In this document: positions 3,034-51,257 of the stretch, one piece after another
Numbering within the stretch: position 1 is the stretch's first letter
How the letters are laid out: the number at the start of each line of letters is the position of its first letter
NCBI GenBank assembly: GCA_964602665.1
Contig: CAZRRH010000002.1
Coordinates: 1 to 60,170, forward strand
Origin: an uncultured Candidatus Saccharibacteria bacterium
GTDB lineage: Bacteria > Patescibacteriota > Dojkabacteria > SC72 > WJKH01
DNA length: 60,170 bases
Direction: 5' to 3'
The notes under the pieces: model-generated
The model's input: only the letters and a program-made list of their open reading frames with translations
What the model was told of the DNA's origin: nothing
Databases searched by the model: none
Program-made: the position numbers and the translations under genes

Positions 3034-3591
3034 TTAAAGTCTCATCTTAAATATTAGTAAATAAGCAATTGCTATTAATATAACCGGTGGAATTGATATA
3101 AAAAGGATCTCTCTTATACCAAACTTATTCTCCTGTGGCTCTATTAATACTGTTTCACTTACTTTTTGCTCTGTTTGTTCTTCGTCATCTGTTGTACTAC
3201 TGGAGGCTGTATCTTGTGGCTCGTAAATTTGTACTACAGGCTCTGTATTTGTTCTTTCTGCTATGTCTTCTAGTATCTTTACGCTTCCAAAGATGCAATC
3301 TTCTCCATCATAGGACATCGGTACTGAGTAATCACTCTCGGATATGTCGTATCCGCAAGCATCTTTCGCTATGAGATATTGATTAAGGTTTTCATCACTA
3401 GTGTCAATATCTTTAAATATTATGTTAAGTTTCTCATCGTATTTTTGTTCTTCTGTTGCTGATTTTACTTGTGCACAATATCCGCATGTTGTGGAAGTGA
3501 ATATTGTATATTCATCTTTGGCTAGAACATCACATGGGGCATATATAATTATTAATGAAAACATCATTAAAAAAAGAATTATTTTCTTCAT
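3034..3591 (-). CDS. Exported glutaredoxin/thioredoxin-fold protein with C-terminal TM anchor
   Basis: Signal peptide, CGYC motif, cis-Pro-like SVPM, acidic linker, C-terminal hydrophobic helix. Confidence 0.7.
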   Translation of the reverse strand: MKKIILFLMMFSLIIIYAPCDVLAKDEYTIFTSTTCGYCAQVKSATEEQKYDEKLNIIFKDIDTSDENLNQYLIAKDACGYDISESDYSVPMSYDGEDCIFGSVKILEDIAERTNTEPVVQIYEPQDTASSSTTDDEEQTEQKVSETVLIEPQENKFGIREILFISIPPVILIAIAYLLIFKMRL

Positions 3592-4319: not shown

Positions 4320-4620
4320 TAAGCTTATTCAGAAAGGTTTTACTATTATTGACAGAAACTATTTTTGTAAAGGGCACAAAGGAGAGATCGACATAGTAGC
4401 AATAAAGGATAATAAGGCATATTTTTTTGAAGTAAGAACAAGATCTTCCAATTTATCAAATGGAGAATATGCTGTCATAAATTCGTATAAAAAGTACAAA
4501 TTCCTAATGGCGTGCTATTGCTGGATTAATGAGCATAATTATCAATTTGGAGGTATATATCTGGCAATTGTAAAAATCATAGTAGATGATACTTTTATTT
4601 TTTGTAAAAGAATGATATAA
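4258..4620 (+). CDS. yraN: YraN family PD-(D/E)xK nuclease
   Basis: GNIGEAIVANKL..KGFTIIDRNY...GEIDIVA...FFEVRTR. Start moved to in-frame TTG at 4258 because the track start at 4198 lies deep inside rnhB. Confidence 0.8.
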   Translation: MRKKITHKKRIGNIGEAIVANKLIQKGFTIIDRNYFCKGHKGEIDIVAIKDNKAYFFEVRTRSSNLSNGEYAVINSYKKYKFLMACYCWINEHNYQFGGIYLAIVKIIVDDTFIFCKRMI

Positions 4621-22077: not shown

Positions 22078-23385
22078 ATGAAAACAAATGAAATTTTGGA
22101 ACAGTTACCAATAAGTTGTGGAGTTTATAAGTTTTTTGATAAGGAAAATAAACTTCTATATATCGGCAAGGCCAGCAATTTAAAACAAAGGGTTTCTTCG
22201 TATTTTCATGACAATCACGTTGATAGGCCTCACATTATCCCAATGATTCCGCTCATAGAGGATATAAAATTTATCCAGACTGTAAATGAAGTTGAGGCGC
22301 TTATTCTTGAGTCTGCCCTCATTAAAAAGTATCAGCCTAAATTTAATATTGATTTGAAAGATGACAAATCATTTGGATGGATTTTTATATCTACTAAGGC
22401 CGACATTCCTCAAGTCAAAATTGTTAGATCAATAAAAAAAGCAGATTACAAAGGGGGAAGGCTATTTGGTCCGTATCCTCACGGTATTGTTATAAAAAGA
22501 GTTTATAAATATCTTCGCATGATTTTCCCGTTTTGCAATTGTAAAAACGATAGAGAGGAGCTTTTATATCATCAAATAGGATTATGTCCAGGTCCAATTA
22601 TCGGTAAGATATCAAAAGAAGAGTACAAAAAAAGTATAAATAAACTAATCGATTTCCTCTCAGGAAGAAGAGTTTCGCCTATAAAAGCACTAAGTAAGAA
22701 CCTTGATTTACTAATAAAAGAGCAAAGATTTGAAGAAGCCCAGAAAATTAGCGAAAAAATAAAGGATCTGCAATATATAACTCAAAGAATAGATATTGAT
22801 CACTTATCAAATGAGCAGGATTACAGAATAAAGAGAGAAAGTACATTAAAAAAATCAAATGAGATGCTTGCAAAAGAGCTCAAGCTCGAGAGAATAAATA
22901 GGATTGAATGCTATGATATTTCTAATATAGGAGGAGATTTCTCTTACGGATCAATGGTTGTCGCAAATGATGGGATAATTAATACATCAGGTTATCGAGC
23001 TTTTAAAATAAAAACAGTTGAAGGTGCAAATGATTATGCGTCATTAAATGAAGTTTTATCAAGGCGAATAATCCATATTGACAACAATTCGAAAGACCAG
23101 AGTTTAAATACTAAACCTGATATTATACTTATAGATGGTGGAAAAGGGCAGGTGAAAGCTGTTGCAGATATTGTCCCAGAAGATATTATTTTAATGGGTA
23201 TAAGTAAAGGGAGAAAATTTGCTCGTGCCGGGGGCAAAAGATCAAATCAATACTGGAGTAGGCAGGGAGAATTAATAACAATAAAAAGCGATTTTGTTTT
23301 AGTAAATTTGAGGGATGAAGCTCACAGATTTGCAATAAAGTTCTACAGACAAGGGCACAACAAAAGTCTGCAAAACGACAAATAA
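22078..23385 (+). CDS. uvrC: Excinuclease ABC subunit C (short form)
   Basis: GIY-YIG (GVYKF..LLYIGKASNLKQRVSSYF, EALILES), RIECYDISN, IDGGKGQ, LRDEAHRFA; ends without an HhH domain. Confidence 0.92.
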   Translation: MKTNEILEQLPISCGVYKFFDKENKLLYIGKASNLKQRVSSYFHDNHVDRPHIIPMIPLIEDIKFIQTVNEVEALILESALIKKYQPKFNIDLKDDKSFGWIFISTKADIPQVKIVRSIKKADYKGGRLFGPYPHGIVIKRVYKYLRMIFPFCNCKNDREELLYHQIGLCPGPIIGKISKEEYKKSINKLIDFLSGRRVSPIKALSKNLDLLIKEQRFEEAQKISEKIKDLQYITQRIDIDHLSNEQDYRIKRESTLKKSNEMLAKELKLERINRIECYDISNIGGDFSYGSMVVANDGIINTSGYRAFKIKTVEGANDYASLNEVLSRRIIHIDNNSKDQSLNTKPDIILIDGGKGQVKAVADIVPEDIILMGISKGRKFARAGGKRSNQYWSRQGELITIKSDFVLVNLRDEAHRFAIKFYRQGHNKSLQNDK

Positions 23386-23458
23386 AAGCCTTGAAAATAT
23401 ACACTAATTTTAAACACTATGATATAATCGGAAGATTTAAATTTTGATTAATAAAAAA

Positions 23459-23845
23459 ATGAAAATACAAGTTTTTGGAACGGGATGCCCAACATGTTTG
23501 GAGCTTTTTGATAAAGTTAAAAAGGTTAGGGAAGAACTAAAAATTGAGGATGAGGTAAGTTATACTTCTGATATAATGGAGATCGCAAATGAAGGAATTG
23601 CTGCTACTCCAGCCTTAAAAATTAATGGTAAGGTCATTTTTGCCGGTAGAGCTCCATCTATTGAGGAGATAAAGGAGAAATTTCAATTTATAATTGAATC
23701 GGATTCATCTCTGGAAGTTGATGCACATACATGCGACTGTAATTGTGCAGATGATTGCAAATGTGGCGCTGGAAATTGCGACTGCGGATGTGACGAAGGA
23801 AATTGTGATTGCAAAGATAACTGTAGTTGTGGATGTCAAGATTAA
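23459..23845 (+). CDS. MTH895/ArsE-like small thioredoxin fused to a Cys-rich metallothionein-like tail
   Basis: MKIQVFGTGCPTC...TPALKING..GRAPS; last 39 aa contain 13 Cys. Start ATG 23459 (track used TTG 23444). Confidence 0.85.
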   Translation: MKIQVFGTGCPTCLELFDKVKKVREELKIEDEVSYTSDIMEIANEGIAATPALKINGKVIFAGRAPSIEEIKEKFQFIIESDSSLEVDAHTCDCNCADDCKCGAGNCDCGCDEGNCDCKDNCSCGCQD

Positions 23846-23869
23846 AATTTTGAATAAAATTGTTCTAAT

Positions 23870-24322
23870 ATGCAAGTTAATATTAATAAAAAACTGTTAT
23901 ATATATTATTAGCGATTATTTTTCTTATCATAGCGGCCCAAATTCTTATCGTAAAATTTGGCAAGAAAGAATCTGAGCAGGAGATACAGAAAGGTGATAG
24001 ATTAGAAATATTGCAATTCCATGGAAATATTAAATGTGCTTCGTGCACAACGCTTAGTGATAATATTAATGCCGTTTTGGATGAAAAATTTACTGATAAA
24101 AAAGAGCAAAATAAGATTGTTTATAAATTAATAAATGTTGATCTAGCGAAGAATCAACAAATTGTCCAAAAATATAATGCAAAAGATGGCAATGTATATT
24201 TTAATGTAATTAATGGAGACGAAGAAACAGCAATCGCCGAGTACTCTATATGGGGTTACATATACGATAAAGAGGGTTTTAGCTCATATTTGGAAAATAA
24301 AATAAACAGCTTATTAAATTAA
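23870..24322 (+). CDS. ArsF-like membrane-anchored thioredoxin-fold protein
   Basis: N-terminal TM, LEILQFHGNIKCASC, INVD..N.....KY pattern. Confidence 0.7.
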   Translation: MQVNINKKLLYILLAIIFLIIAAQILIVKFGKKESEQEIQKGDRLEILQFHGNIKCASCTTLSDNINAVLDEKFTDKKEQNKIVYKLINVDLAKNQQIVQKYNAKDGNVYFNVINGDEETAIAEYSIWGYIYDKEGFSSYLENKINSLLN

Positions 24323-24966
24323 TGCAAACGGTAATATCTATATTTTTGGCGGGTTTATTAATGACAGTAAGTCCGTGTCAGTTTAGTAGCAATATTTCTG
24401 CTGTAGCATTTTTATCAAGAGATGTACAGAATAAAAAGAAAGCCTTGCTTAATAATGGATTGTATATTATCGGTCGAGCGAGTGTTTATTTAATAATCAC
24501 TATAATAATCTACACAGGTGCAGCAAATATAAATTTACATGAATTATCTGAAAAAATCCTAGCGCCGTTATTTATAGTCGCAGGAATACTCATGCTTGAT
24601 ATTATTAAAATAAAAGGTTTGCATAACAGCAAATTCGTTGAGAAAATAAATGGGAAGTCATTTTTAGGCTCGTTTTTATTTGGAATTGTACTGGCACTGT
24701 CTTTTTGTCCTCATAGCTTGGGCATATTTTTAGGGGTTTTTATTCCTATCGTTTTAAAAAACGAAATGCCTTTATTATCACCTATTTTTTTTGCCCTTGG
24801 GAGCTCATTACCAGTAATTATTTTTTCAATAATAATCGTATTTAGCGCCAATAAACTTGGGATTGTATTTAATGCAGTTAAGAAAATCGAGAAATGGGTT
24901 AGAAGAATTGCTGGATTAATTATGTTGGGAGCAGGTTTGTACTATCTTATATTGGAAATAATATAA
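24322..24966 (+). CDS. ArsG-like / DsbD-CcdA family membrane protein
   Basis: GLLMTVSPCQFSSNISA and ALSFCPHS Cys pair, GRASVY, six TM helices; 1-nt overlap with upstream gene. Confidence 0.8.
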   Translation: MQTVISIFLAGLLMTVSPCQFSSNISAVAFLSRDVQNKKKALLNNGLYIIGRASVYLIITIIIYTGAANINLHELSEKILAPLFIVAGILMLDIIKIKGLHNSKFVEKINGKSFLGSFLFGIVLALSFCPHSLGIFLGVFIPIVLKNEMPLLSPIFFALGSSLPVIIFSIIIVFSANKLGIVFNAVKKIEKWVRRIAGLIMLGAGLYYLILEII

Positions 24967-26060
24967 TCGTACATATTTGAAATTGCTTCATTATTTCCAT
25001 ATCTCTCAATTAAGAAAACGACTTTTTTATTATACTGTATCAATATCGTTACAGAATTAGGGATCTGGGACAGTTGAGTTTCTGACTCTGTATTTGATTG
25101 CCCAGAAGAATTAGTTGTAGTATTTGGCTGTACTTGAGCCTCAAGAACCGTTCCAATACTTAACTGTTTATAACTATGATTATCGATTTTATATCCTCTT
25201 GAAAGCTCGACATCATCGATATATTTATCAATAGTGCCCCCTGTGTAGATCATAACAGGGAAAAGATCAATACGGCCACTTTCGCCTTTAGTTTTAAAAG
25301 ACACGCCAAAAATCTCACTAATAACTGTCTCTGCTGAGTCAATTATATAATATGTTGCAACATAATCTCTGTCTATCTGTAATTGCCAAGGATAATTAGG
25401 TAGAAGAGACACCTTCTTTGCATCTTCGATTATTTGTGCGATTTCTTTTTCATAATTAACAATATCTGACAACCCATTCCTAGCCTGTTCATCTGTTATT
25501 TTTTGATACCATATGTCATTTATTTGATCGTATAGCCTTATGCCAATTCCTTCAGATTCTTTTTGCCAGTAAAAGCCATATTTTTTATCTGTAGACTCAG
25601 GAGGGACTTCTTGTACAAAAGTCCATCCGAATTTTTCCATGTTTTCTTTGTAATACTGTGTGGCATCTTTAAAGGTTTTTGAAGGAGAAATTCTGTATAT
25701 TGAATAACCCTTGCCAATAAACTCTTGAACAGCCAACTCTTCTGTTTTGTTTTGAAATACAAATTCAGAATAAGGATAAGCAGGTACATCTTCAAATCCT
25801 ATAACGCGATCCTCTGTATAATCATCTAGGTTTACCGAAGGCTTTTCTCTTATCTTAAGGACAAGTTGTACAAGTGATATTATGAGAATGAAAACAGATA
25901 TTCCAATAATGGGAACTAATATTAGTGTCGCCAAGTTTTTCTTGCCTGTGCTCAGAGTGAATAGGCGATTTCTTTTTATTCTTTTACTAGAATTTTTTTT
26001 AGGGAGCTTAATTTGCCCAGGAGTAAAAGGTTTTATTTGCTTCTTTTTTTTAAAAATCAT
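24942..26060 (-). CDS. Hypothetical single-pass membrane protein
   Basis: Long ORF with basic N-terminus and one TM. Start set to ATG 26060 (MIFKKK); the track start at 26123 overlaps dus. Confidence 0.65.
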   Translation of the reverse strand: MIFKKKKQIKPFTPGQIKLPKKNSSKRIKRNRLFTLSTGKKNLATLILVPIIGISVFILIISLVQLVLKIREKPSVNLDDYTEDRVIGFEDVPAYPYSEFVFQNKTEELAVQEFIGKGYSIYRISPSKTFKDATQYYKENMEKFGWTFVQEVPPESTDKKYGFYWQKESEGIGIRLYDQINDIWYQKITDEQARNGLSDIVNYEKEIAQIIEDAKKVSLLPNYPWQLQIDRDYVATYYIIDSAETVISEIFGVSFKTKGESGRIDLFPVMIYTGGTIDKYIDDVELSRGYKIDNHSYKQLSIGTVLEAQVQPNTTTNSSGQSNTESETQLSQIPNSVTILIQYNKKVVFLIERYGNNEAISNMYDYIISNIR

Positions 26061-26117
26061 GCTTTTAAAATATAAACTGTTACTTTGTTTTGATATTGTG
26101 GTATGGTATAATTTACT

Positions 26118-27068
26118 ATGCAATCAAATAAAAATCAAGTATGGTTAGCTCCTATGGATGGTTGGACTGACTGGGCTCTCAGGAGAGCAATAAAAGATAA
26201 AAACTGTTATGATAATGTTACTTATTTTACCGAATTTGTACACGTACAGTCTTTAATAAGAGATATTTACAACAATAAAAAGGTTCTTTATAGGCTTAGA
26301 AATGAAGATGATATTGCACAGCTTTATGGACAAGACGAGGAAGCGTTTTTTAAAGCTAGTCAAATGCTTATAAAGCAAGGATTTAAAGGAATAGATATAA
26401 ATATGGGTTGTAGCATAAGGAAAATTGCGACAAGAGGCGATGGCGCTGGATTAATAAGAGATAGAGAAAATGCAATAAAAGTAATAAGAGCAGTTAAAAA
26501 AGCGGTTAAACAAAGTGGAAAAAATATCACAGTTTCAATAAAAACGAGACTTGGTTTTGATAAAGATGATGGTGAGAATTGGATTTCATTGCTTGTACAG
26601 GAGCAGCCTGATTGGATTACAATACACGGTAGAACATATGCTCAAGGTTTTAGCGGTAAAGCCAATTGGAGTAGAGTAGGTGAAATAGCTAAATATGTCA
26701 CAAAGAACTTTGGATACAACAAAATTGTTGGCAATGGAGATATTAAGAGCATAGAACAGGCTCATGATTTGCAAGAAAAATATAATTTATATGCCACAAT
26801 GATTGGTAGAAATTTGAGATCTTTTATAATCGATCCTACTCGTGATATAAATGAGCAAAAAATTACTATCACATCCTTTCTGATTAAGTATTTATCTTAT
26901 CATAGAGAGCATTTATCTAAATTTTTTGGCAGCGAAAAATCTGCTTATGATTATACAAAGAAAATTAGCATAATAATGCTTAAAGGACTTAGCAATATTA
27001 AACAATTAAAAATTGATCTTTTAGTTGCTGATAACTATGATAGAGCGTTAGAAGTATTGGCTCTATAG
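26118..27068 (+). CDS. dus: tRNA-dihydrouridine synthase
   Basis: LAPMDGWTD, GIDINMGC, VSIKTRLG, ITIHGRT, VGNGDI, MIGR. Confidence 0.92.
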   Translation: MQSNKNQVWLAPMDGWTDWALRRAIKDKNCYDNVTYFTEFVHVQSLIRDIYNNKKVLYRLRNEDDIAQLYGQDEEAFFKASQMLIKQGFKGIDINMGCSIRKIATRGDGAGLIRDRENAIKVIRAVKKAVKQSGKNITVSIKTRLGFDKDDGENWISLLVQEQPDWITIHGRTYAQGFSGKANWSRVGEIAKYVTKNFGYNKIVGNGDIKSIEQAHDLQEKYNLYATMIGRNLRSFIIDPTRDINEQKITITSFLIKYLSYHREHLSKFFGSEKSAYDYTKKISIIMLKGLSNIKQLKIDLLVADNYDRALEVLAL

Positions 27069-30408: not shown

Positions 30409-30482
30409 CGGAGAATAGCTCAGATGGCTAGAGCACACGCATGGGGTGCGTGGGGTCGCAGGTTCGAGTCCTGTTTCTCCGA
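30409..30482 (+). tRNA. tRNA-Pro(GGG)
   Basis: Acceptor CGGAGAA/TTCTCCG, anticodon arm CACGC-ATGGGGT-GCGTG, T-loop TTCGAGT. Confidence 0.95.
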
Positions 30483-30530: not shown

Positions 30531-30547
30531 GCGGAGCAATGGCCTAA
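30521..30547. terminator. 12-bp hairpin (one G:U) containing the recombinase stop codon
   Basis: TTAGGCTATTGC-GGA-GCAATGGCCTAA; no U-tract, so terminator function is uncertain. Confidence 0.4.
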
Positions 30548-32010
30548 TTCAAGTCGGGTCGCCCCGACCATTCAGAACGAGATTGCATTTTTATAATCTC
30601 GGAAAATGGATTTTTAGCGGTATAATCGAATTTTTCATTGGTAATGATAAAGTTCGAGAATACAAATTGGAGAATTTCTCGCTTTTCTTCTTGTGTCCCC
30701 TGTTTATATATATATGAAGCCATTTTACAGAGTTCGAGAATTTTTAAACCTGTTTCAAAATAAGATTGATTAGCTCTTTTGTGCTTTTTTATAAGGTTTA
30801 ATAGTCTATCTTCATTTTCCTGTTCTTTCTTTGCTTTCTCAAGATAAACTTCTTTTGAAATCAAACCATCTAATTTATCATCGTACAATTGATCTTTTCG
30901 CTTTTGAATACGATCTAACTTTTGTTGCAATGTTTTTAATGCTTCATTATGAAACTGGATTTCATTCGTGTGAGAATTTTTTAAAACGTTTTTAACATCA
31001 TCATAAATATTCTCTGGAATAATAAGCATATCAAGCACTTGTATAATTTCGTCTTCAAGTTTTTCTTCTCTCCAATAATTGTGAGAATGCTTTTTGTAAT
31101 GCTCTGTACATCGATAATAAATATATTTGCCTTTCTGAATTTCGGTCGTATAGCTCGAGCCACAAACACCACATTTAATAAGTCCTGAAAACAGGAAGTT
31201 ATGTTTATCTTTTCTTGGACGTTTTCTGTTATTGAATATTACTTGCACTTTATAAAATAATTCTGGTTCAATTATTGGCTTATGCTTACCTTGATAAGTT
31301 TCACCTTTCCATATCATTTTACCAATATAGAAGGGATTTTGTAAGGTTACGTGTAATTTTGATTTTGATACTTTTTTATTGAATTTATTCACAAACCCTT
31401 CTTTATGTAACTGTTCACAAATGCGTTCTAACGAGAAAAGCTCTGTAGCGTACATTTCAAAAGCTTTTTTTACAAAATGGGCTTGTGAATCATCAATGAT
31501 AACGTTTTTTGTATTTGCATCGTTTTTATATCCAAGTGGAGCTGATCCCGGCCAGCCACCTTGTCGTAACTTTTCCTGAAAACCTTTTTTAACTTCATCT
31601 GAAAGATTGTTAATGTAGTTTTTAGCAAGTACTGCTTGTAAGTCAAAATTTAATTTCTCTGAGGATCTAGAATTTCTATGAAGTACAATATTTTCTCTTA
31701 CAAAGTGAAACTCCTTGTCGTAATCATCAATTAATTCTTGAACTTTTACAATGTCTCTAAAATTTCTTGCTACACGATCTATTTTTTCAAATATTACAAC
31801 TCGTATGTCCGATTTCTTTAAGAATTCAATCATTTCATTAAATGCTTTTCTTCCCTCTTTTTTTGCTGATTCGGAAACTTTCCAACTTTTTTGTACTTTT
31901 AAATTCTGCTTTTCTGCGTAAATACCGATTTTCTCGTACTGAGCATCAAGTGAATATCCTTCTGCCTGTTCTCTTGATGAAACTCGACAGTAGGCAATTG
32001 CTTTATTCAT
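30544..32010 (-). CDS. Large serine recombinase (resolvase + recombinase + zinc ribbon + coiled coil)
   Basis: AYCRVSS.EQ catalytic Ser motif, DRVARN, GGWPG.APLGY, NPFYIG, HKPII, CGVCG...YYRC. Confidence 0.95.
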   Translation of the reverse strand: MNKAIAYCRVSSREQAEGYSLDAQYEKIGIYAEKQNLKVQKSWKVSESAKKEGRKAFNEMIEFLKKSDIRVVIFEKIDRVARNFRDIVKVQELIDDYDKEFHFVRENIVLHRNSRSSEKLNFDLQAVLAKNYINNLSDEVKKGFQEKLRQGGWPGSAPLGYKNDANTKNVIIDDSQAHFVKKAFEMYATELFSLERICEQLHKEGFVNKFNKKVSKSKLHVTLQNPFYIGKMIWKGETYQGKHKPIIEPELFYKVQVIFNNRKRPRKDKHNFLFSGLIKCGVCGSSYTTEIQKGKYIYYRCTEHYKKHSHNYWREEKLEDEIIQVLDMLIIPENIYDDVKNVLKNSHTNEIQFHNEALKTLQQKLDRIQKRKDQLYDDKLDGLISKEVYLEKAKKEQENEDRLLNLIKKHKRANQSYFETGLKILELCKMASYIYKQGTQEEKREILQFVFSNFIITNEKFDYTAKNPFSEIIKMQSRSEWSGRPDLN

Positions 32011-33394: not shown

Positions 33395-35269
33395 ATGCAA
33401 AATTTAAAAGAAAAGCTGTTTGACTTACTAGAGTCAGATACAAGAATCTGGAATGAAGAAAAAACAGAATTGAACGAAACCTTACTGAAAGACATGATTG
33501 ATAAACTTGATGAAAAATTGCTTGAAATACTATTAAGTAGTGAAGATATTAAGGAGAAATTTTTTATCAAAGTAACTCGGACTGAGCAAAGTCGAAGTCA
33601 AGATGTCTATGTGCTGAAGCAGAACGAATTGAAGTTTTTTATTGATGAAAACAAACTTGACAACTCCTATACACAATATAGAAATAAGATTGGGTTAAGG
33701 GTTGGGAATAAATTACTTTCTGAAAGGGATGAGGTTGTGCTTGACTGGCCTTTTAAAGATTGTGTGCTTGAGGGTGGTATGACAAAAGAAGATCAAAAAA
33801 GAAATGAGATATTTTTCAATGAGGTGTTGGCAAAAGATGAAATTGATAGACTGTATGAGCCCAAAGCTCTTGTAAACTGGAAAAGATACACTGCAAAGGG
33901 TGAAGAAAAAGTTACGGAGATTAAAAGAGATAAAGATGGAATGATAAGGGAGAATTTGATTATTAAAGGCAATAATCTTTTAGCCTTGCATACGTTGAAA
34001 AAAGAATTTGCAGGAAAGGTGAAGCTGATTTATATCGATCCACCTTATAATACCGAAAATGGTTCTTTTAGATATAATGACTGTTTTAATCATTCTTCGT
34101 GGCTAGTTTTTATGAGGAACAGATTGGAGATTGCAAAACAATTACTTTCTGATGACGGCTTAATCTTTGTGCAAATAGATGATAATGAGCAGGCATATTT
34201 AAAAGTATTAATGGATGAATTATTCGACAGAGAAAATTTTATAAATTCTATTATTTGGAAAAGGACATTCAGTCATGGTGATTCCGGTCAGGGTGCTAAC
34301 CATCTTGGTAGACTGCACGATGTTATTCTTCTTTACAAAAAATCAGATCAAGGGAAATTAAATAATGTTTATACTGAATATTCAGAAGAATATGTTAAAA
34401 ATTTTTATAAATATACTGATGAGAATGGGCGCAGATATCGTTTAGTAACTATGACGGCACCCGGAGGATCAAATAAAGGAAATCCTTTCTATGAAGTTAT
34501 GGGAGTTGAGAGATATTGGATGTATTCGAAAAAGAATATGGAAGAACTTATCAAGAAGGGGGAAGTTGTTCAAACTAATCGAGGTACCGTACCACAAAGA
34601 AAAAGATATTTAGATGAATCAAAGGGTGTCCCACTACAAGATCTATGGGTTGATATAAACCCGTTGCAGGGAGTACAAAAAGAAAAGGTTGATTTTGTTG
34701 GACAAAAACCCGAAAAATTACTTGAAAGAATAATAGAATTGTCTACAAATCAAAGCGATTTGGTTATTGATTTTCATATCGGGACAGGAACGACTTTAGC
34801 GGTCGCTCATAAAATGGGTCGGCAATATATCGGTATTGAACAAATGGATTATATTCATGATTTGGCGGAGTCACGGTTAAAAGAAGTTATTAAGGGGGAT
34901 CAATCGGGAATCTCAAAAAATGTAAACTGGCAAGGGGGTGGTGACTTTATCTACCTCGAACTTGCCAAGTGGAACGAAGAAGCTAAAGAAAAAATCCTTA
35001 ATGCCAAAAGCCTTGATGAGCTAGTTAAACTATTTGATGAACTCTACGAAAGATACTTCCTTAACTACAATGTTAAAACAAAGGAATTCAAGGAAAAGAT
35101 TGTAAAAGAGGACGAATTCAAGAAACTTTCACTTGATGAACAGAAAAAGCTGTTTGTAGAAATGCTAGATATGAATCAGATGTATGTCAATTTCAGTGAA
35201 AGAAACGATAAAAAATATGGATTATCAGCTGATGATATTAAAATATCAGAAATGTTTTATAGTAAATAA
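33395..35269 (+). CDS. mod: Type III restriction-modification methyltransferase (Mod)
   Basis: NLIIKGNNLLAL, IYIDPPYNT, QIDDNE, KPEKLLERII, DFHIGTGTT, GIEQMDY. Confidence 0.93.
   Translation: MQNLKEKLFDLLESDTRIWNEEKTELNETLLKDMIDKLDEKLLEILLSSEDIKEKFFIKVTRTEQSRSQDVYVLKQNELKFFIDENKLDNSYTQYRNKIGLRVGNKLLSERDEVVLDWPFKDCVLEGGMTKEDQKRNEIFFNEVLAKDEIDRLYEPKALVNWKRYTAKGEEKVTEIKRDKDGMIRENLIIKGNNLLALHTLKKEFAGKVKLIYIDPPYNTENGSFRYNDCFNHSSWLVFMRNRLEIAKQLLSDDGLIFVQIDDNEQAYLKVLMDELFDRENFINSIIWKRTFSHGDSGQGANHLGRLHDVILLYKKSDQGKLNNVYTEYSEEYVKNFYKYTDENGRRYRLVTMTAPGGSNKGNPFYEVMGVERYWMYSKKNMEELIKKGEVVQTNRGTVPQRKRYLDESKGVPLQDLWVDINPLQGVQKEKVDFVGQKPEKLLERIIELSTNQSDLVIDFHIGTGTTLAVAHKMGRQYIGIEQMDYIHDLAESRLKEVIKGDQSGISKNVNWQGGGDFIYLELAKWNEEAKEKILNAKSLDELVKLFDELYERYFLNYNVKTKEFKEKIVKEDEFKKLSLDEQKKLFVEMLDMNQMYVNFSERNDKKYGLSADDIKISEMFYSK
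33575..33598. repeat. 24-bp REP-like palindromic element, in frame inside mod
   Basis: ACTCGGACT-GAGCAA-AGTCGAAGT (7/9 arm pairs) encoding TRTEQSRS. Confidence 0.65.
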
Positions 35270-35271
35270 TT

Positions 35272-38046
35272 ATGGATGATCAAATATTACAACAACAAGT
35301 TGAATCTGAAATAGGTAGAAAAACCATTTCAAAAATAAAGATTCCTGAATATATCACTAGTAATATTAAGCATGATCTCTGGCAGTGGCAGATCGAGGCC
35401 TTACAATACTTCATAGCATATGATGATCCTGAGTATGACTTTGAAAGAAGTTTCAGCGCCCCTGTACATCTAATGTTTAACATGGCAACCGGAACAGGTA
35501 AAACAGTACTCATGGCTTCACTGATTCTTTATTACTACAAAAAAGGTTATCGCCACTTCATCTTCTTTGTAAATCAAAATAATATTGTAGATAAAACTGA
35601 AAACAACTTTATCAATAAAAACCATAATAAATACTTATTCAAACAAAACATCGTAATTGACGATAAAACAGTAAATATCAAGAAAGTCGAAAGTTTTGAT
35701 GATAGTGATGATATTCAGATCAAATTTACTTCCATTCACAAGTTACATAATGCAGTTTATCTGGCAAAAGAAAACGCTGTAACGCTTGAAGATCTGCAGA
35801 AAAGGAATCTTGTGATGATTGGTGATGAAGCTCACCACTTTAACGCCTCAACGATGAAAAACGGACAAATGAATTTAGATATGCCGACTGAGCTTAAAGA
35901 TAATTCAAGTGCCAGTGATGTTGAAAGAAGCTGGGAAAATACTGTTTTGAATAAAATACTTAAAAAAGAAGGTTATTCAGGACAAAGTGAGAACAGAAAT
36001 GTTTTGCTTGAATTTACTGCGACTATTCCAAACAATCAGGAAGTAAAAGAGAAATACCGCACAAAAACAATATATAAATACGAATTAATAGACTTTCTTA
36101 ATGCAGGATACACAAAAGAGATAAATTTAATTTCCACTTCTTTAAATAAAAAAGAAAAAATCCTGTTAGCACTACTCTTTAATTGGTATAGACACAAGAT
36201 AGCTTTATTAAATAACATTCCCAATTTCAAACCAGTTATTTTATTTAGAAGCAAATACATTGAAGAATCAAAAAATGACTATCGTGAATTTTTAACAACA
36301 GTAAAAGAATTACAAAAAACTGATTTTGAATTTTTATCAAGCATTGAAAAGAAACTGCAATCAGAACAAAGGTCAGTTCTAAAAGTATATGAGCAAGGTG
36401 CAAGCAGGATAAAACAAATGATTGGATTTATTAATGAGCAGAATATTGACTTTAACGACATTATCAGTTTTATAAAAGCTGATTTTGATGAAAGAAATTG
36501 CATTATTACAAATTCAAAGGATAATAAGACTACAACAAAGGAAAAAACGACAGAAGAACAGGAACAGCTTTTAAACAGCCTTGAGGATAAGAATAATCAT
36601 ATTAGAGCAATATTTACAGTTAAGCGTCTTACAGAGGGCTGGGATGTGCTAAATCTATACGATATCGTAAGGCTTTACGAAGGTCGTGACGAGGGTCAAG
36701 ACAAAAGCGGAAAAAGAAAGGCAGGAGAAACAACAACGCAGGAAATTCAGCTTATCGGGAGAGGTGTAAGATATTATCCTTTTGAATACAAAGAAACAGA
36801 AGCAAGTAAAAGGAAGTTTGATGAGGACTTAGAAAATCCGTTAAGAATATTAGAAGAATTTTATTTTCATAGCGAAAATGATATTAGATATCTGGATGAA
36901 TTAAAACGTGAATTAAAGAATAAAGGATTTATTCAGGATAATAGGATTGTTAAAAAGTATAAATTAAAGGAGGATTTTGAAAACACGGACTTTTTCAAAG
37001 AAGTAAAAGTTTGGAAAAATGAAAGAATTGATAATCCTGAAAAAAGAAAGCTCAATTTATCTGAAATAAAAACAGATCCACAATTTAACCCGTTTACTTA
37101 TGAAATTAAAGGATTTTCTCTAAAAGAACAGAAAGTTGACCTTAATGAAAAGTTTGATAATGTATTGGCAGAGTCAAAACCAGCATACAAAAGATCGATA
37201 CAGATATCTTTCAAAGAGATAGATAAACACATAATTAGAAAAGCAATAAATATCAAGGCAAAAGCAGATAATTCAATTCTGAAATATGAAAATTTAACCA
37301 ATGAATTAAACATCTCCTCGATTGATGATATATTCAATGATAAATATCTTGGAGATATGAAATTCAATATCATTACAGAAAGCGAAACCGTAAATTTATC
37401 AGATATAAGTGCAGATGATTTGTTAAATTGCTTACTGATTTTCTTTGAGCAATTCACAAGCAAACTAAAGGAGATTAATAATCCATATAAAGGTGATACA
37501 AAGTTTAAACACTTCTCGTTTAAAGAATTATTTGGAGAACAAAAAGAAAAGAGCGTTTTAATCGATGAGGAAAGCAAACTACTTGAAGATGAAATGCTGA
37601 AATGCAAGTGGTACGTATTAAATGGTTTCAACGGTACGAGTGAAGAAAGAGAACTACTTGATTTCTTAAAAAAGAGAATTGTTAATCTACAGGAAAGATA
37701 TGATCAGGTATACCTACTTAGAAATGAAGAAGTATATAAAATATACGATTTTGAGAAAGGTAGAGGATTTGAACCTGATTTTCTTCTATTCCTAAAAGGG
37801 AAAAATAAAACACTTTATTATCAAATTTTCATTGAACCAAAAGGAGATGAATTCAAGGATAAATCAGGATTATTCACTGAAAGTAAGGAAGGATGGAAAG
37901 AAGAATTTATGAAACAAATATCTCATAAATATGGTAATGGAGAGATTTTGAAAGCCGAGAACAGAAAATATGTTTTATATGGTTTACCTCTTTTTAATAG
38001 TAAAGATAAACTAAGTTTTGAAAATGAATTTAATAAATTTATTTGA
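35272..38046 (+). CDS. res: Type III restriction endonuclease (Res)
   Basis: SF2 motifs MATGTGKT, DEAHH, FTAT, LTEGWDV, QLIGRGVR; nuclease FEPDF...IEPKG. Confidence 0.93.
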   Translation: MDDQILQQQVESEIGRKTISKIKIPEYITSNIKHDLWQWQIEALQYFIAYDDPEYDFERSFSAPVHLMFNMATGTGKTVLMASLILYYYKKGYRHFIFFVNQNNIVDKTENNFINKNHNKYLFKQNIVIDDKTVNIKKVESFDDSDDIQIKFTSIHKLHNAVYLAKENAVTLEDLQKRNLVMIGDEAHHFNASTMKNGQMNLDMPTELKDNSSASDVERSWENTVLNKILKKEGYSGQSENRNVLLEFTATIPNNQEVKEKYRTKTIYKYELIDFLNAGYTKEINLISTSLNKKEKILLALLFNWYRHKIALLNNIPNFKPVILFRSKYIEESKNDYREFLTTVKELQKTDFEFLSSIEKKLQSEQRSVLKVYEQGASRIKQMIGFINEQNIDFNDIISFIKADFDERNCIITNSKDNKTTTKEKTTEEQEQLLNSLEDKNNHIRAIFTVKRLTEGWDVLNLYDIVRLYEGRDEGQDKSGKRKAGETTTQEIQLIGRGVRYYPFEYKETEASKRKFDEDLENPLRILEEFYFHSENDIRYLDELKRELKNKGFIQDNRIVKKYKLKEDFENTDFFKEVKVWKNERIDNPEKRKLNLSEIKTDPQFNPFTYEIKGFSLKEQKVDLNEKFDNVLAESKPAYKRSIQISFKEIDKHIIRKAINIKAKADNSILKYENLTNELNISSIDDIFNDKYLGDMKFNIITESETVNLSDISADDLLNCLLIFFEQFTSKLKEINNPYKGDTKFKHFSFKELFGEQKEKSVLIDEESKLLEDEMLKCKWYVLNGFNGTSEERELLDFLKKRIVNLQERYDQVYLLRNEEVYKIYDFEKGRGFEPDFLLFLKGKNKTLYYQIFIEPKGDEFKDKSGLFTESKEGWKEEFMKQISHKYGNGEILKAENRKYVLYGLPLFNSKDKLSFENEFNKFI

Positions 38047-47049: not shown

Positions 47050-50000
47050 ATGAATGAAGCAGTAAGAAAATATCTTGAAGAAATCTTAAACAAATATAAA
47101 AGTGGACATGCAAGAGAACATGCTTATCGCCCTGCTCTTCAAAGGTTAGTTGAAGAAATAAACGATTCAATAAATGCAATCAATGACCCTAAACAGCAAA
47201 AAGTTGGTGCTCCTGACTTTGTACTTCTTAAAAACAAGACGCCAATCGGCTACATTGAGGCAAAAGATATTAATGTAGATCTTGACAAAGAATTTAAAAC
47301 AAAAAATCAGTTCAATCGCTATAAACAATCTTTAAATAATCTTTGTTTTACTAATTATTTACAATTTATATTCTATCTTAATGGACAAGAAGTACAGAGG
47401 GTCGAATTGGCAAAACTTGTTGATAAAAAAATTGAAATAATAGAAGAAAACATTCCTTTGTTTGAAAGTGTCCTGAAAAATTTCACAATAGCAAAAACAG
47501 TTTCAATAAAAAGTCCAAAAGAGCTAGCCTCATTAATGGCAGAAAAAGCGAAAATGCTTAAAAATGTTATATATCTTGCGCTTTCACAAGAGGAAGAGGA
47601 ACAGCAACAAATTGAGAAGCAGTTTGAGACTTTTAAACATATGCTAATTCACGATTTAACTAAGGAGCAGTACGCTGATATTTATGCACAGACGGTTGCA
47701 TATGGTATGTTTGCAGCTAGATATCATGACAATTCAATGGAAACATTTTCAAAAGATGAGGCAGGTAAACTTCTTCCAAAATCAAATCCATTTCTTAGGA
47801 ACTTTTTTGACACTATTACAGGGATAAATATTGATGATCGTATAGTTTGGATTGTTGATGATATGGCAGAGCTTTTTAATCATGTAAGTGTCCGTGAGTT
47901 GCTTGAGAATTATGGTAAAGATACAAAGAGAAATGATGTGATTGTGCATTTTTATGAGACTTTTCTTTCGGAGTATGATTCCAAAATGCGGAAATCACGA
48001 GGTGTTTACTACACTCCTGAGCCTGTTGTTGATTTTATTGTCAGAGCTGTTGATGACATTTTAAAGAGTGAGTTTGGGATTGCCGATGGGCTTGCTGATA
48101 CAAGTAAAATCGAAGTTGTAAAAGAGGTCCAAGGAAGTAAGAAAAAGCAAAAAGTAATGGAACACAGAGTACAAGTACTCGACCCCGCCACTGGTACTGG
48201 GACTTTTTTGGATCATGTAATCAAGCATATCTATAGAAGTAAGTTTGAGGGTCAGCAAGGGCTTTGGCAAAGCTATGTTGATGAGCATCTACTACCCCGT
48301 TTGCACGGTTTTGAGCTTTTGATGGCAAGTTATGCGATGGCTCATCTTAAATTGGACATAACTCTTGCCCAGACAGGATATGATTCCTCTAAGGGGCAAG
48401 GTGGGCGTTTGGGTGTATATCTTACTAATTCGCTTGAAGAACCAACCGCTACATATCGTGATTTGTTTTCACAATGGATTACGACTGAAAGTCTTGAAGC
48501 TAATAAGATTAAGAAGGAGAAGCCCATTATGGTGGTTATGGGAAATCCACCGTATTCGGTAAGTAGCTCTAATAAGGGAGAATGGATACAAAATCTTATC
48601 AAAGACTATAAAAAAGATTTGAATGAGAGAAAAATAAACCTCGATGACGATTACATCAAGTTTATTCGCTATGCCCAATGGTTTATTGAAAAGAACGGTG
48701 AAGGAATTATTGCCTACATTTCAAATAATTCTTTTATAGACGGAATTACTCATAGGCAGATGCGAAAGTCATTGCTCGAAACATTTAATAAAATCTATAT
48801 TCTAGATTTGCATGGGAATTCAAAGAAAAAAGAAGAATCTCCTGATGGTTCAAAAGATGAAAATGTTTTCGATATTATGCAAGGTGTAAGTATAAATATT
48901 TTTGTAAAAAATAAGAGTTCAAGAAGTAAATTAGGCGAAGTCTATCATTCAGAGTTGTGGGGAAAGCGAGAAGAGAAATACAATGAATTGTTCAATAATA
49001 TCGAGAAATTCACTTGGAGTAAATTACAATGCCAGTCTCCAAGTTATTTTTTTGTCCCAAAAGATTTCTCAAAGATTATTGATTATGAAAAAGCTATAAA
49101 TCTTTCGGACTTATTTAGGAGCTATTCTTCTGGTATCGAATCACAAAAAGATTCTGTTGCTATTCAATTTACAGATGGCGAAGCTGATATTATTTTCGAA
49201 GATTTCAAAAACCTAGACGCTGTAGATTTATCCAATAAATATAAAATTTGTGATACAAGAGACTGGACTATTAAGAATGCCAAAACGGATTTAATCAGCT
49301 CAAAAAGAGTGATAATTTCATATAGGCCATTCGATTATAGATATACCAATTACTCTGGTAAATCAAAAGGATTTATTGCATATCCTCGTGATGATGTCAT
49401 GAAGCAATTCGTTGAAAAAGCAAATTACGGCTTAGTGTTTAAAAGAGGGTTTTCTGAAAGTTTGGCGGCCCCCTGTTTCATCTCAGATACAATCATTGAT
49501 AGAAGGTTTTGGTCAAGACCTGGAATGCAAGGTGCTGAACAAATAGCCCCTCTTTACCTCCATTCTGAATCACGACTAGATTCTTCAACTCGTCAACCAA
49601 ACTTTGACCAAAAAATCATTGACGAGATTGCATTAAAACTAAAACTTCAATTTATCCCTGACCACGAACACGCAGATTCAGGCAAAGAAGGAACATTCAA
49701 TCCTCTAGATGTTCTTGACTATATTTACGCAATATTACACTCTCCAACATATCGAGAACGATACAAAGAATTCTTGAAAATAGATTTTCCTCGAATACCA
49801 TTTACATCAGATCAACAGCTATTCTGGGCTTTAGTGAAAAAAGGTCGAGAGCTGAGAGAGTACCACTTAATGGAACATGTAAACAGCAGTAAATTGATTA
49901 CTAAATTTCCAATTACTGGCGAAAATGAAATAACTCAATTCCCCAAATTTGATGGTAGCAAAGTATGGATAAACGAAACTCAGTACTTCGATAAAGTGCC

Positions 50001-50187
50001 TCAAATTGCATGGGAGTTTTATATTGGTGGCTATCAACCTGCTCAAAAATGGCTAAAAGATAGAAAAGGTCGTAAGTTGAGTTTTGATGAAGTTTTGCAT
50101 TATCAAAAGATTATTGTTGCATTGGTGAATACAGATAGGTTGATGAAGGAGATTGATAAATTAATACCGAAGTGGCCGATTAAATAA
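47050..50187 (+). CDS. Single-chain Type IIG-like RM enzyme (nuclease + m6A MTase + Type ISP-like specificity domain)
   Basis: GAPDF...GYIEAKD, GVYYTP, VLDPATGTGTF, GNPPY, DYIYAILHSP.YR..Y.EFLK.DFPRIP, WEFYIGGYQPAQKWLKDRK; no helicase motifs seen. Confidence 0.9.
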   Translation: MNEAVRKYLEEILNKYKSGHAREHAYRPALQRLVEEINDSINAINDPKQQKVGAPDFVLLKNKTPIGYIEAKDINVDLDKEFKTKNQFNRYKQSLNNLCFTNYLQFIFYLNGQEVQRVELAKLVDKKIEIIEENIPLFESVLKNFTIAKTVSIKSPKELASLMAEKAKMLKNVIYLALSQEEEEQQQIEKQFETFKHMLIHDLTKEQYADIYAQTVAYGMFAARYHDNSMETFSKDEAGKLLPKSNPFLRNFFDTITGINIDDRIVWIVDDMAELFNHVSVRELLENYGKDTKRNDVIVHFYETFLSEYDSKMRKSRGVYYTPEPVVDFIVRAVDDILKSEFGIADGLADTSKIEVVKEVQGSKKKQKVMEHRVQVLDPATGTGTFLDHVIKHIYRSKFEGQQGLWQSYVDEHLLPRLHGFELLMASYAMAHLKLDITLAQTGYDSSKGQGGRLGVYLTNSLEEPTATYRDLFSQWITTESLEANKIKKEKPIMVVMGNPPYSVSSSNKGEWIQNLIKDYKKDLNERKINLDDDYIKFIRYAQWFIEKNGEGIIAYISNNSFIDGITHRQMRKSLLETFNKIYILDLHGNSKKKEESPDGSKDENVFDIMQGVSINIFVKNKSSRSKLGEVYHSELWGKREEKYNELFNNIEKFTWSKLQCQSPSYFFVPKDFSKIIDYEKAINLSDLFRSYSSGIESQKDSVAIQFTDGEADIIFEDFKNLDAVDLSNKYKICDTRDWTIKNAKTDLISSKRVIISYRPFDYRYTNYSGKSKGFIAYPRDDVMKQFVEKANYGLVFKRGFSESLAAPCFISDTIIDRRFWSRPGMQGAEQIAPLYLHSESRLDSSTRQPNFDQKIIDEIALKLKLQFIPDHEHADSGKEGTFNPLDVLDYIYAILHSPTYRERYKEFLKIDFPRIPFTSDQQLFWALVKKGRELREYHLMEHVNSSKLITKFPITGENEITQFPKFDGSKVWINETQYFDKVPQIAWEFYIGGYQPAQKWLKDRKGRKLSFDEVLHYQKIIVALVNTDRLMKEIDKLIPKWPIK

Positions 50188-50420: not shown

Positions 50421-51257
50421 ATGGCAGTACCAAAATATGACGACTTATTTCAGCCTTTACTTGATGCTTTACATGAGTTGGGTGGCTCAGCAAGCATAGA
50501 AGAGATTGATGATAAAGTAGCAAAAGTGCTTAAATTAAACGATGATGATATAAATGAAATTCATCGTGGCAATATGACAAAATTGAGTTATAGATTAGGA
50601 TGGTCGAGAAACTATCTTAAAAAATTTGGATTATTAGAAAATTCACAGAGAGGAGTTTGGAGGCTTACATTGAAAGGGCAAACCACAAAGAAAATTGATA
50701 AGGCAACAGTAAGACGAGAAGTAAGGAAAATGTCTAAAAAAGAAGTTGATATTAACGATATGGATGAAGGAACGACGCCGGAAGATATCGATACCACATG
50801 GCAAGAAGAACTTATTGGGAAACTATTGCGAGTATCTCCACAATCTTTTGAAAAACTTTGCCAGAGAGTTCTTAGGGAGGCAGGATTTGTACAAGTTGAG
50901 GTAACAGGTCGTAGCGGGGATGGCGGAATTGATGGAAAGGGAATATTAAAAATGAACGGTCTTCTTAGTTTTCATATTATCTTTCAATGCAAGCGCTACC
51001 AAAATGCAGTTTCTTCAAAAGAGATCAGAGATTTTCGTGGTGCAATGCAAGGTCGAACTGATAAAGGTCTTTTTATAACTACGAGTACTTTTACAAGAGA
51101 TGCAAAGCAGGAAGCTACTCGTGACGGAGCTCCTCCCATTGATTTAATTGATGGGAATTCTTTAGCAGAAAAAATGAAAGAATTAAATTTGGGCGTAAAA
51201 ATCAAAACAGAGGAGAATGTAAGTATTGACAATTCTTTTTTTGAAGAGTATTTTTAA
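50421..51257 (+). CDS. mrr: Mrr-family (Type IV) restriction endonuclease
   Basis: N-terminal wHTH (RLGWSRNYLKKFGLL..SQRGVW), GRSGDGGIDG...QCKRY, IRDFRGAM, LIDG. Confidence 0.93.
   Translation: MAVPKYDDLFQPLLDALHELGGSASIEEIDDKVAKVLKLNDDDINEIHRGNMTKLSYRLGWSRNYLKKFGLLENSQRGVWRLTLKGQTTKKIDKATVRREVRKMSKKEVDINDMDEGTTPEDIDTTWQEELIGKLLRVSPQSFEKLCQRVLREAGFVQVEVTGRSGDGGIDGKGILKMNGLLSFHIIFQCKRYQNAVSSKEIRDFRGAMQGRTDKGLFITTSTFTRDAKQEATRDGAPPIDLIDGNSLAEKMKELNLGVKIKTEENVSIDNSFFEEYF

Follow-up and report, generated by a model that had tools for sequence, protein, structure and literature searches.

A cysteine-tailed ArsE heads a minimal arsEFG-like cassette in a Dojkabacteria contig: a putative metal(loid)-related transmembrane dithiol relay

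This study concerns a three-gene locus in a window of 60,170 nucleotides (positions 1 to 60,170, forward strand, of contig CAZRRH010000002.1, assembly GCA_964602665.1) from an uncultured Candidatus Saccharibacteria bacterium placed in the Dojkabacteria by GTDB. The locus encodes relatives of ArsE, ArsF and ArsG, and its ArsE ends in an acidic tail with 13 cysteines in 39 residues. We give a probability of about 0.55 to the whole picture, namely that the trio would be a transmembrane dithiol relay, that it represents a minimal form of a wider cassette, and that the tail has a metal(loid)-related role. In the proposed mechanism, cytoplasmic ArsE would hand reducing equivalents from its CPTC motif to ArsG (Cys19/Cys129), which would pass them to the CASC motif of the exported, membrane-anchored ArsF. 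In relatives, this relay would operate under a Cys-bearing ArsR/SmtB-type regulator and together with a CxC-bearing ArsP-type permease, a context that would point to defence against thiol-seeking metal(loid)s, and the thioredoxin domain of ArsE may also keep its attached tail reduced. The families, predicted folds, conserved cysteines, opposite-side topology, context statistics and conservation of the tail cysteines come from the tools applied, and from these we infer the electron flow, the metal binding and which metal is concerned.

The first gene (23459..23845 including the stop codon, + strand) encodes a 128-residue ArsE-like protein, whose translation runs MKIQVFGTGCPTC...HTCDCNCADDCKCGAGNCDCGCDEGNCDCKDNCSCGCQD. 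Residues 1-74 form an MTH895-type thioredoxin, as indicated by matches to PF13192 Thioredoxin_3 (E 2.1e-19, 69.8 bits against a cut-off of 24.8), to TIGR00412 MTH895/ArsE (79.4 bits, cut-off 62) and to MTH895 itself (PDB 1ILO, E 8.7e-10, aligned over residues 1-73). The protein has the N-terminal G-x-G-C-x-x-C pattern, which includes the CPTC active-site motif (Cys10 and Cys13; 23486..23497, +), and among 34 family members G9, C10, C13, P51 and G63 do not vary, P51 being the conserved proline at the thioredoxin cis-Pro position. The ATG at 23459 was preferred to the TTG at 23444 as the start codon because the homologues begin with MKI. A 15-residue linker separates the thioredoxin part from the Cys tail.

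The second gene (23870..24322, +) encodes a 150-residue ArsF-like protein with an N-terminal transmembrane (TM) anchor followed by a predicted thioredoxin-fold domain, and scored 73.7 bits on NF040494 (cut-off 60). In the family alignment, C56 and C59 of the C56-A-S-C59 motif (CASC; 24035..24046, +) are invariant, together with W128, F137 and Y140. The AlphaFold2 model, built from a 12-row alignment, reached a predicted local distance difference test score (pLDDT) of 88.8 and consists of a helix over residues 3-31 and then a beta-alpha-beta-alpha-beta-beta-alpha order, with the CxxC at the start (N-terminus) of helix alpha-1. A Foldseek search with this model returned 22 matches at E<=0.001 (best 8.6e-5, probability 1.00), and the PDB matches listed were thioredoxin-fold proteins, mostly thioredoxins. 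We are confident in this predicted fold; the call rests on AlphaFold2 and Foldseek, as ordinary profile methods do not show it. The ArsF profile found no meaningful homologue among PDB sequences, and in an hhalign comparison of ArsF with ArsE the alignment covered just 22 columns about the CxxC (probability 60%).

The third gene (24322..24966, +) starts with an ATG that shares 1 nt with the stop codon of arsF (TAATG). It encodes a 214-residue ArsG-like protein with six TM segments, of the CcdA/DsbD_2 type (PF13386 DsbD_2, E 2e-11; NF040495). Cys19 in the SPC motif of TM1 (24376..24378, +) and Cys129 in the FCP motif of TM4 (24706..24708, +) are invariant in 21 homologues. ArsG is related to CcdA in both sequence and structure: the family profile matched a single protein in the PDB, CcdA 5VKV (E 2.4e-7), which was also the top Foldseek match of the predicted six-TM DsbD_2 fold (E 0.018, probability 1.00, TM-score 0.50), and the SPC of ArsG TM1 aligns with the SPC motif in TM1 of CcdA. 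None of the GTDB representatives matched the window ArsG above 43% identity. An earlier note on this DNA had described an MTH895-type CPTC thioredoxin, a TM-anchored CASC thioredoxin fold and a 6-TM DsbD-like protein with a Cys pair, together an arsEFG-like trio, and the scores given above bear out each of these descriptions, ArsG lying below its NCBIfam cut-off. The extended -10 element that it placed at 23420-28 and its statement that no ArsR or ArsP gene is adjacent are likewise confirmed.

The membrane topology was deduced from protein fusions that occur naturally, together with a signal peptide and a lipobox. Among the ArsE relatives, at least 10 such fusions have the arrangement ArsE, Cys-rich linker, one TM helix and ArsF, with the Cys-rich stretch located directly before the TM segment. 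A single 388-residue protein of Candidatus Solincola (locus L050, 4503-5669) consists of a signal peptide, ArsF and ArsG, and the ArsF of an Altiarchaeales metagenome-assembled genome (L043, 3109-3774, - strand) carries a lipobox (LLAGC); no signal peptide was found on ArsE. Based on this evidence, ArsE is placed in the cytoplasm, ArsF outside it, and the CcdA-like ArsG between the two. This opposite-side arrangement favours a CcdA-type relay over a soluble nitroreductase. The positive-inside analysis of the TM anchor was ambiguous, with Lys/Arg on both sides.

The proposed relay may be compared with the CcdA pathways (Trx to CcdA to ResA/StoA/Etrx; DsbD; ScsB/ScsC), with which it shares a cytoplasmic thioredoxin, a 6-TM protein with cysteines in TM1 and TM4, and an exported, membrane-anchored thioredoxin-fold protein with a CxxC. 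It differs from them in that ArsG belongs to DsbD_2 and not to CcdA/DsbD_TM proper, its second motif is FCP and not xPC, ArsF is without the cis-Pro, and the donor thioredoxin is dedicated, co-encoded and, in this window, Cys-tailed.

The wider genomic context was examined by an ArsG-anchored scan of one genome per GTDB species, which found at least 588 loci. The 80 closest ArsG relatives were kept (the best 80 of these loci, hence not a random sample), and they are distributed over Bacteroidota, several lineages of the candidate phyla radiation (CPR), DPANN archaea, Gammaproteobacteria and others. ArsE, ArsF and ArsG occur together in 66 of the 80 loci, and these 66 loci contain a PF03773 ArsP-type permease in 59 cases (89%) and an ArsR/SmtB regulator in 53 cases (80%), in the gene order R-E-P-F-G or R-E-F-G-P. 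The cassette ArsR proteins bear either CVC or a CC...C set; in the ArsR/SmtB family, thiolate-based metal(loid) sensors typically have CVC in helix alpha-3. The ArsP permeases have an invariant CxC (64/64). By its gene content and family matches, the window trio is evidently a minimal copy of this widespread ArsR-ArsE-ArsP-ArsF-ArsG cassette, without regulator or permease. The operon itself is not new, since the trio is known from ars operons recorded in 2010 (PMC2963123) and from NCBIfam models. Additionally, an ArsR-ArsP-ArsE operon is arsenic-induced in P. mercurii ND132 (bioRxiv 10.1101/2022.10.17.512643), and the gene names arsEFG are traced to Chen et al. 2019 in PMC9144182.

Two variations of the cassette were also observed. 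Bacteroidales-type loci (L035, L058, L059, L064, L066 and L072) have the order arsE-arsR-arsF-arsF-arsF-arsG, with three tandem ArsF paralogues between ArsR and ArsG. In other, mostly CPR loci (L008 3016-4578, L001 7169-8723, L054 and L087), the cassette continues with a TM-anchored glutaredoxin-like gene and two conserved genes for proteins of ~170 and 188 residues, for which no Pfam or NCBIfam family was found. A related protein, exported and glutaredoxin-like, is encoded in the window itself (3034-3591, -). It combines a signal peptide and a CGYC motif with an acidic linker and a TM anchor at the C-terminus, and it shares 25% identity (E 3e-10) with the product of the glutaredoxin-like gene found after ArsG in L008 and L001. 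The relay, whose genes lie at a distance of 20 kb, may have this protein as a client.

The most unusual part of the locus is the tail of ArsE (residues 90-128; 23726..23842, +). These last 39 residues contain 13 Cys (33%) in CxC, CxCxC and CxCxxxC patterns, together with 8 Asp, 1 Glu and 2 Lys, and no Phe, Tyr or Trp. With the background of 0.82% Cys in the other 52 open reading frames (ORFs) of the window, the binomial probability of 13 or more Cys in 39 residues is ~5e-18, and the next densest 39-residue stretch in any window ORF holds 4 Cys. Therefore, the acidic stretch of 13 Cys in 39 residues with CxC/CxCxC repeats, as counted in the earlier note, is confirmed by its composition. A short sequence of ~30% Cys with CxC/CxxC patterns and without aromatics is what characterizes a metallothionein by composition. 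The metallothioneins SmtA/BmtA, MymT and those of eukaryotes have in common with the tail the 33% Cys, the CxC/CxCxC patterns, the lack of aromatics and a length of ~40 residues. In contrast to them, the tail is without a Pfam match, is fused to an enzyme domain and is strongly acidic (9 Asp/Glu against 2 Lys). A Pfam scan of the tail alone matched zero families at E<=10, metallothioneins being among those covered, and the whole ArsE protein matched no metallothionein family at E<=1. The term metallothionein, used for the fusion in the earlier note, thus describes the composition of the tail and not a family membership. Tandem Repeats Finder detected no tandem array in the DNA of the tail, so that the tail is not a recent tandem duplication. 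An antisense ORF of 43 residues (23683-23814, -) is open across the tail and was regarded as a by-product, not a gene, because its wobble positions are shared with the sense TGY/GAY/GGN codons.

Cys tails are not limited to this protein. A word-indexed homologue search found 3 ArsE relatives and, for ArsF, its own cluster only, and the tail survey used an exhaustive search of representatives. Among the 152 best ArsE relatives, 56 have three or more tail Cys, often ending in C[S/G]CGG[K/N]C, a sample that is biased in that the tail itself adds to the score. In the ArsG-anchored sample, which is free of this bias, three or more tail Cys were found in 7 of 71 ArsE, with a maximum of 6, and the tail is wholly absent in 62. 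Short tails, typically C-x-C-G-G-x-C, are therefore carried by ~10% of ArsE. Tails of three or more Cys were found only where ArsP directly follows ArsE (7/24 against 0/43, Fisher p=4e-4). Soluble ArsE with at least 10 tail Cys were limited, among the best 150 of 1.84 billion representatives, to the window protein and its closest long-tailed relative (P0004, 11 Cys), which lies in an ArsR-ArsE-ArsP-ArsF-ArsG operon (L008) whose ArsG scored 292 bits. The nearest tailed ArsE is from Roizmanbacteria. Two further relatives, P0005 (19 Cys) and P0026, have a TM helix after the Cys-rich stretch. As a separate observation, P0005 is encoded under a CVC-motif ArsR at L012 5001-7150. After it, in place of ArsP, ArsF and ArsG, come an AhpC/Redoxin protein and a membrane protein that is SBF-like (Acr3-superfamily-like). 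Judged from this comparison, the 13-Cys tail appears to be an expanded form of the short Cys tail of a minority of ArsE proteins.

A similar tail is known in ArsD, the As(III) metallochaperone of ArsA, which is likewise a small, MTH895-related thioredoxin-fold protein with a short linker and then a Cys-rich tail, and which like ArsE is found in an ars context. The two C-terminal vicinal Cys pairs of ArsD have been reported as additional As(III)/Sb(III) sites. Its end, ...SGCCGGNTSCC, resembles the ArsE tails GSCCSQGGCC and GCSCGGKC, and the two proteins share beta3-beta4-alpha3 with weak similarity (BLASTP E 9e-4; hhalign E 1.2e-4, probability 55%). However, ArsD has CCx4C (the Cys12-Cys13-Cys18 As(III) site) where the window ArsE has CPTC, the ArsD family gave no Pfam match in ArsE at E<=1, the ArsD tail has 4 Cys compared with 13 here, and the window contains no ArsA gene. 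By analogy, the ArsD tail would be the best precedent for the ArsE tail as a site for thiol-seeking metalloids. The top SCOP match of ArsD is MTH895 (1ILO) according to a previous report (PMC3091736).

Limited literature searches found nothing relevant on MTH895 proteins with cysteine-rich tails or on natural thioredoxin-metallothionein fusions. As far as these searches show, the long tail is rare and undescribed, and the module itself is known. The fusion, of which the earlier note knew no described version, is not unique, because Cys-rich tails recur in the ArsE family (56/152, 7/71) and in ArsD, and the length is the unusual part. A one-off readthrough, named in the same note as a refuting outcome, does not agree with the strain data below.

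The strain comparison indicates that the tail is maintained. The identical 128-residue ArsE recurs in several samples, on at least 23 contigs and each time in DnaE-UvrC-trio-Dus synteny, so that neither an assembly artefact nor a read-through artefact explains it. Overall, the divergence of the strain variants from the window is 1.5-3.5%. In a second allele of the tail (P0179; loci L094 and L095), 23 of 120 nt are changed (19%), with 11 synonymous and 6 non-synonymous codons, and all 13 Cys are retained with their spacing. In arsF the two alleles differ by 1 nt, and they are identical over the promoter region, arsG and the thioredoxin-coding part of arsE. Strain divergence in general is mosaic, since in the comparison of window positions 22950-25370 with L002, L004, L007 and L094, dense patches of single-nucleotide polymorphisms, such as 20 within 145 bp of uvrC and 23 within the arsE tail, are separated by long stretches without any difference. 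Promoter, thioredoxin part of arsE, arsF and arsG are identical or nearly so among the strains, and the flanks differ by 1.3-4.6%. We read the second tail allele as an imported recombination patch, from its likeness to the patches elsewhere. Hypermutation of the tail was considered and rejected for the same reason, the dense patches elsewhere, such as that in uvrC, pointing to recombination mosaicism. As the second allele keeps the 13 Cys despite its divergence, a diverged lineage maintains the Cys array, and the long tail is apparently under selection.

Regarding its function, the tail most likely serves as a binding site for soft metals or for metalloids such as As(III) and Sb(III), located in the cytoplasm close to the membrane. 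Its CxCxxxC and CxCxxxxC spacings recall the CxCxxC As(III) site of the R773 ArsR, and the acidity of the tail would, as inference only, be more compatible with charge-neutral As(III)-S3 sites than with anionic M(II)-thiolate clusters. A more specific proposal, which we advance tentatively as one possibility among several, is that ArsE is a putative self-reducing metallothionein. Here the tail would be a metal(loid)-thiolate domain, holding As(III)/Sb(III) in, for example, about four S3 sites or forming a Cu(I)/Zn/Cd cluster. It would be maintained in the reduced state by its own thioredoxin and, in a bacterium of small genome and after the loss of the ancestral ArsR and ArsP, would either replace efflux by sequestration or feed ArsG directly. 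The earlier note had combined a thiol relay with metal(loid) handling, and this combination fits the results obtained here.

Several results weigh against the relay with a metal(loid)-related tail. No metal- or arsenic-related gene is present in the 60-kb window, and no ArsR- or ArsP-like sequence was found in any of its frames; the metal(loid) link accordingly rests on the relatives, whose gene-context counts were obtained with hidden Markov models built for this analysis and simple ORF calls. The absence of any Pfam family for the tail at E<=10 counts in the same direction. ArsG reached 189.6 bits on NF040495, under the equivalog cut-off of 200, its TM4 Cys is two residues off the TM4 Cys of CcdA (CP, compared with PC in CcdA), and its predicted model is only moderately confident (pLDDT 67.8). 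In ArsF, position 105 is Lys where the family has an almost invariant Thr (L-T-T-K-S segment, ahead of beta-3), and a conserved cis-Pro is missing from the family alignment, an uncommon situation for a thiol-disulfide oxidoreductase. Finally, Chen, Zhang and Rosen reportedly gave the reduction of nitro groups to ArsE and ArsF and efflux to ArsG in 2019, and this is, to our knowledge, the only experimental study of ArsEFG.

The main rival to the electron relay is a hand-over of the metal(loid) itself, a kind of Mer system in reverse, in which the tail or the CxxC of ArsE would pass the thiophilic substrate, by ligand exchange, to the Cys pair of ArsG acting as transporter, and from there to the CxxC of the exported ArsF and out, with no electron transfer. 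The Mer relay (MerP CxxC to MerT CC to NmerA CxxC to the C-terminal CC of MerA) likewise has dithiol stations on both sides of the membrane and within it, and also has a Cys tail on a cytoplasmic redox protein, although its protein families are unrelated. Sequence data do not separate the two. The anatomy of one dithiol per compartment is the same, and we consider the hand-over rather doubtful but the strongest of the alternatives. A Cys-rich tail suits the handling of a substrate better than electron transfer, the ArsP of the full cassette has a membrane CxC, and ArsG gets a sub-threshold Pfam match to LysE, a superfamily that includes genuine metal transporters. ArsG has moreover been reported as an efflux permease, as cited in PMC9144182. 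Against this, the sole solved relative of ArsG is the electron transporter CcdA, ArsE has the CxxC canonical for thioredoxins as well as a conserved proline at the cis-Pro position, and full cassettes already have a dedicated permease in ArsP.

A second alternative, which seems unlikely, is a housekeeping reduction of extracytoplasmic disulfides of the CcdA-ResA/Etrx type with no role for metals, the tail serving as a redox buffer or as a docking element for ArsG. The position of the locus amid DnaE, UvrC and Dus, without a regulator, is in agreement with such a role, as is the exported glutaredoxin-like protein at 3034-3591 with its kin after ArsG in CPR cassettes. The retention of ArsR in 80% and ArsP in 89% of the E+F+G loci, the co-occurrence of tails and adjacent ArsP, and the similar Cys tail on ArsD speak against it.

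The third alternative, somewhat more unlikely again, is the role published for ArsEFG, in which trivalent roxarsone or nitarsone would be reduced at the nitro group by ArsE and ArsF acting jointly, and the resulting amino compounds would leave the cell through ArsG. Substrates of the roxarsone/nitarsone type are synthetic, and the cassette is spread over CPR, DPANN, Bacteroidota and others. Further, the natural fusions place the membrane between ArsE and ArsF, neither of these proteins matches a nitroreductase or flavin-binding family of Pfam or NCBIfam, the name of the ArsF model apart, and the window ArsG is under the equivalog cut-off and has no ars context. The names and scores of the NCBIfam models, and Chen et al. 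2019 as cited in PMC9144182, speak for the published role. The ArsE/ArsF/ArsG system of Shewanella putrefaciens 200 (Chen, Zhang & Rosen 2019; TIGR00412, NF040494, NF040495) has the same three families in the same E-F-G order, but the window is without ArsR, ArsP or any other ars gene in its 60 kb, its ArsG is below the equivalog cut-off, its ArsE has the 13-Cys tail, and a soluble ArsEF enzyme is at odds with the evidence on topology. An organoarsenical detoxification system would be expected in an ars operon under ArsR, and the window trio, with neither ArsR nor ArsP in 60 kb, does not lie in one.

The last explanation, that the tail is a non-functional low-complexity extension or read-through, draws on the lack of a family match and on the open antisense frame at 23683-23814, and is highly improbable and already contradicted by the data, since the identical protein is found on at least 23 contigs, the 13 Cys are kept at 19% nucleotide divergence with 11 synonymous against 6 non-synonymous codons, distant homologues have analogous tails, and the open antisense frame is expected from the shared wobble positions.

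The three genes share the + strand and are flanked by uvrC (22078-23385) on one side and, on the other, by a convergent gene of unknown function (24942-26123, -); the neighbours are housekeeping genes (DnaE, UvrC, Dus). The GC content of the window is 33.2%, which, together with the Roizmanbacteria source of the nearest tailed ArsE, makes a CPR/Patescibacteria origin likely. An extended -10 promoter-like element, TGATATAAT, is located at 23420..23428 (+), 30 nt 5' of the ATG of the first gene, and the 73-nt intergenic region 5' of arsE is identical in six strain variants. The motif TGNTATAAT is enriched in the window, with 16 matches compared with 7.05 expected, a number reached by 0 of 100 shuffles. 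Its copies (e.g. at 4613, 23420, 26104, 28593, 29889, 41247 and 43666) are mostly located 10-40 nt 5' of genes or tRNAs, including tRNA-Lys, tRNA-Gln, tRNA-His, the Dus gene and several ORFs. No recognisable -35 element was found beside these sites, and a scan with the -35/-10 consensus listed no promoter at 23420-23428. From this distribution, TGNTATAAT is probably the usual promoter form of this genome. A second copy lies within arsE at 23569-23577.

The product of the convergent gene at 24942-26123 (-) has 372-393 residues and a TM segment at its N-terminus, and the gene shares 25 nt with the 3' end of arsG. No Pfam family was matched by it, and no terminator-like structure was found between it and arsG.

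Further downstream, window positions 30409-51257 are probably an integrated island or defence region, as judged from the gene content. A tRNA-Pro (30409-30482) is followed by a large serine recombinase (30544-32010, -) and a Phage_rep_O-like ORF, and the region also encodes a Type III restriction-modification pair (33395-38046), a Fic_N protein, a Type ISP restriction-modification enzyme (47050-50187) and Mrr (50421-51257). Divergence between strains is highest immediately ahead of this region (193/1343 nt), in a stretch that begins near 28.5 kb and reaches at least 29.8 kb, the end of the compared loci.

The transmembrane dithiol relay proposed here would have consequences beyond this genome. 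If the tail binds metal(loid)s, the window ArsE would be a natural thioredoxin-metallothionein fusion, a design that would counter thiol oxidation, the chief weakness of metallothioneins, and that may be reusable for bioremediation or biosensing. The comparative data touch a much larger family of at least 588 genome loci, in which ArsE and ArsF are separated by the membrane, with a CcdA-like protein between them. The names 'nitroreductase subunit' and 'efflux permease', which annotation pipelines pass on, may therefore refer to a side activity, the main function being that of a transmembrane dithiol relay under metal(loid) control.

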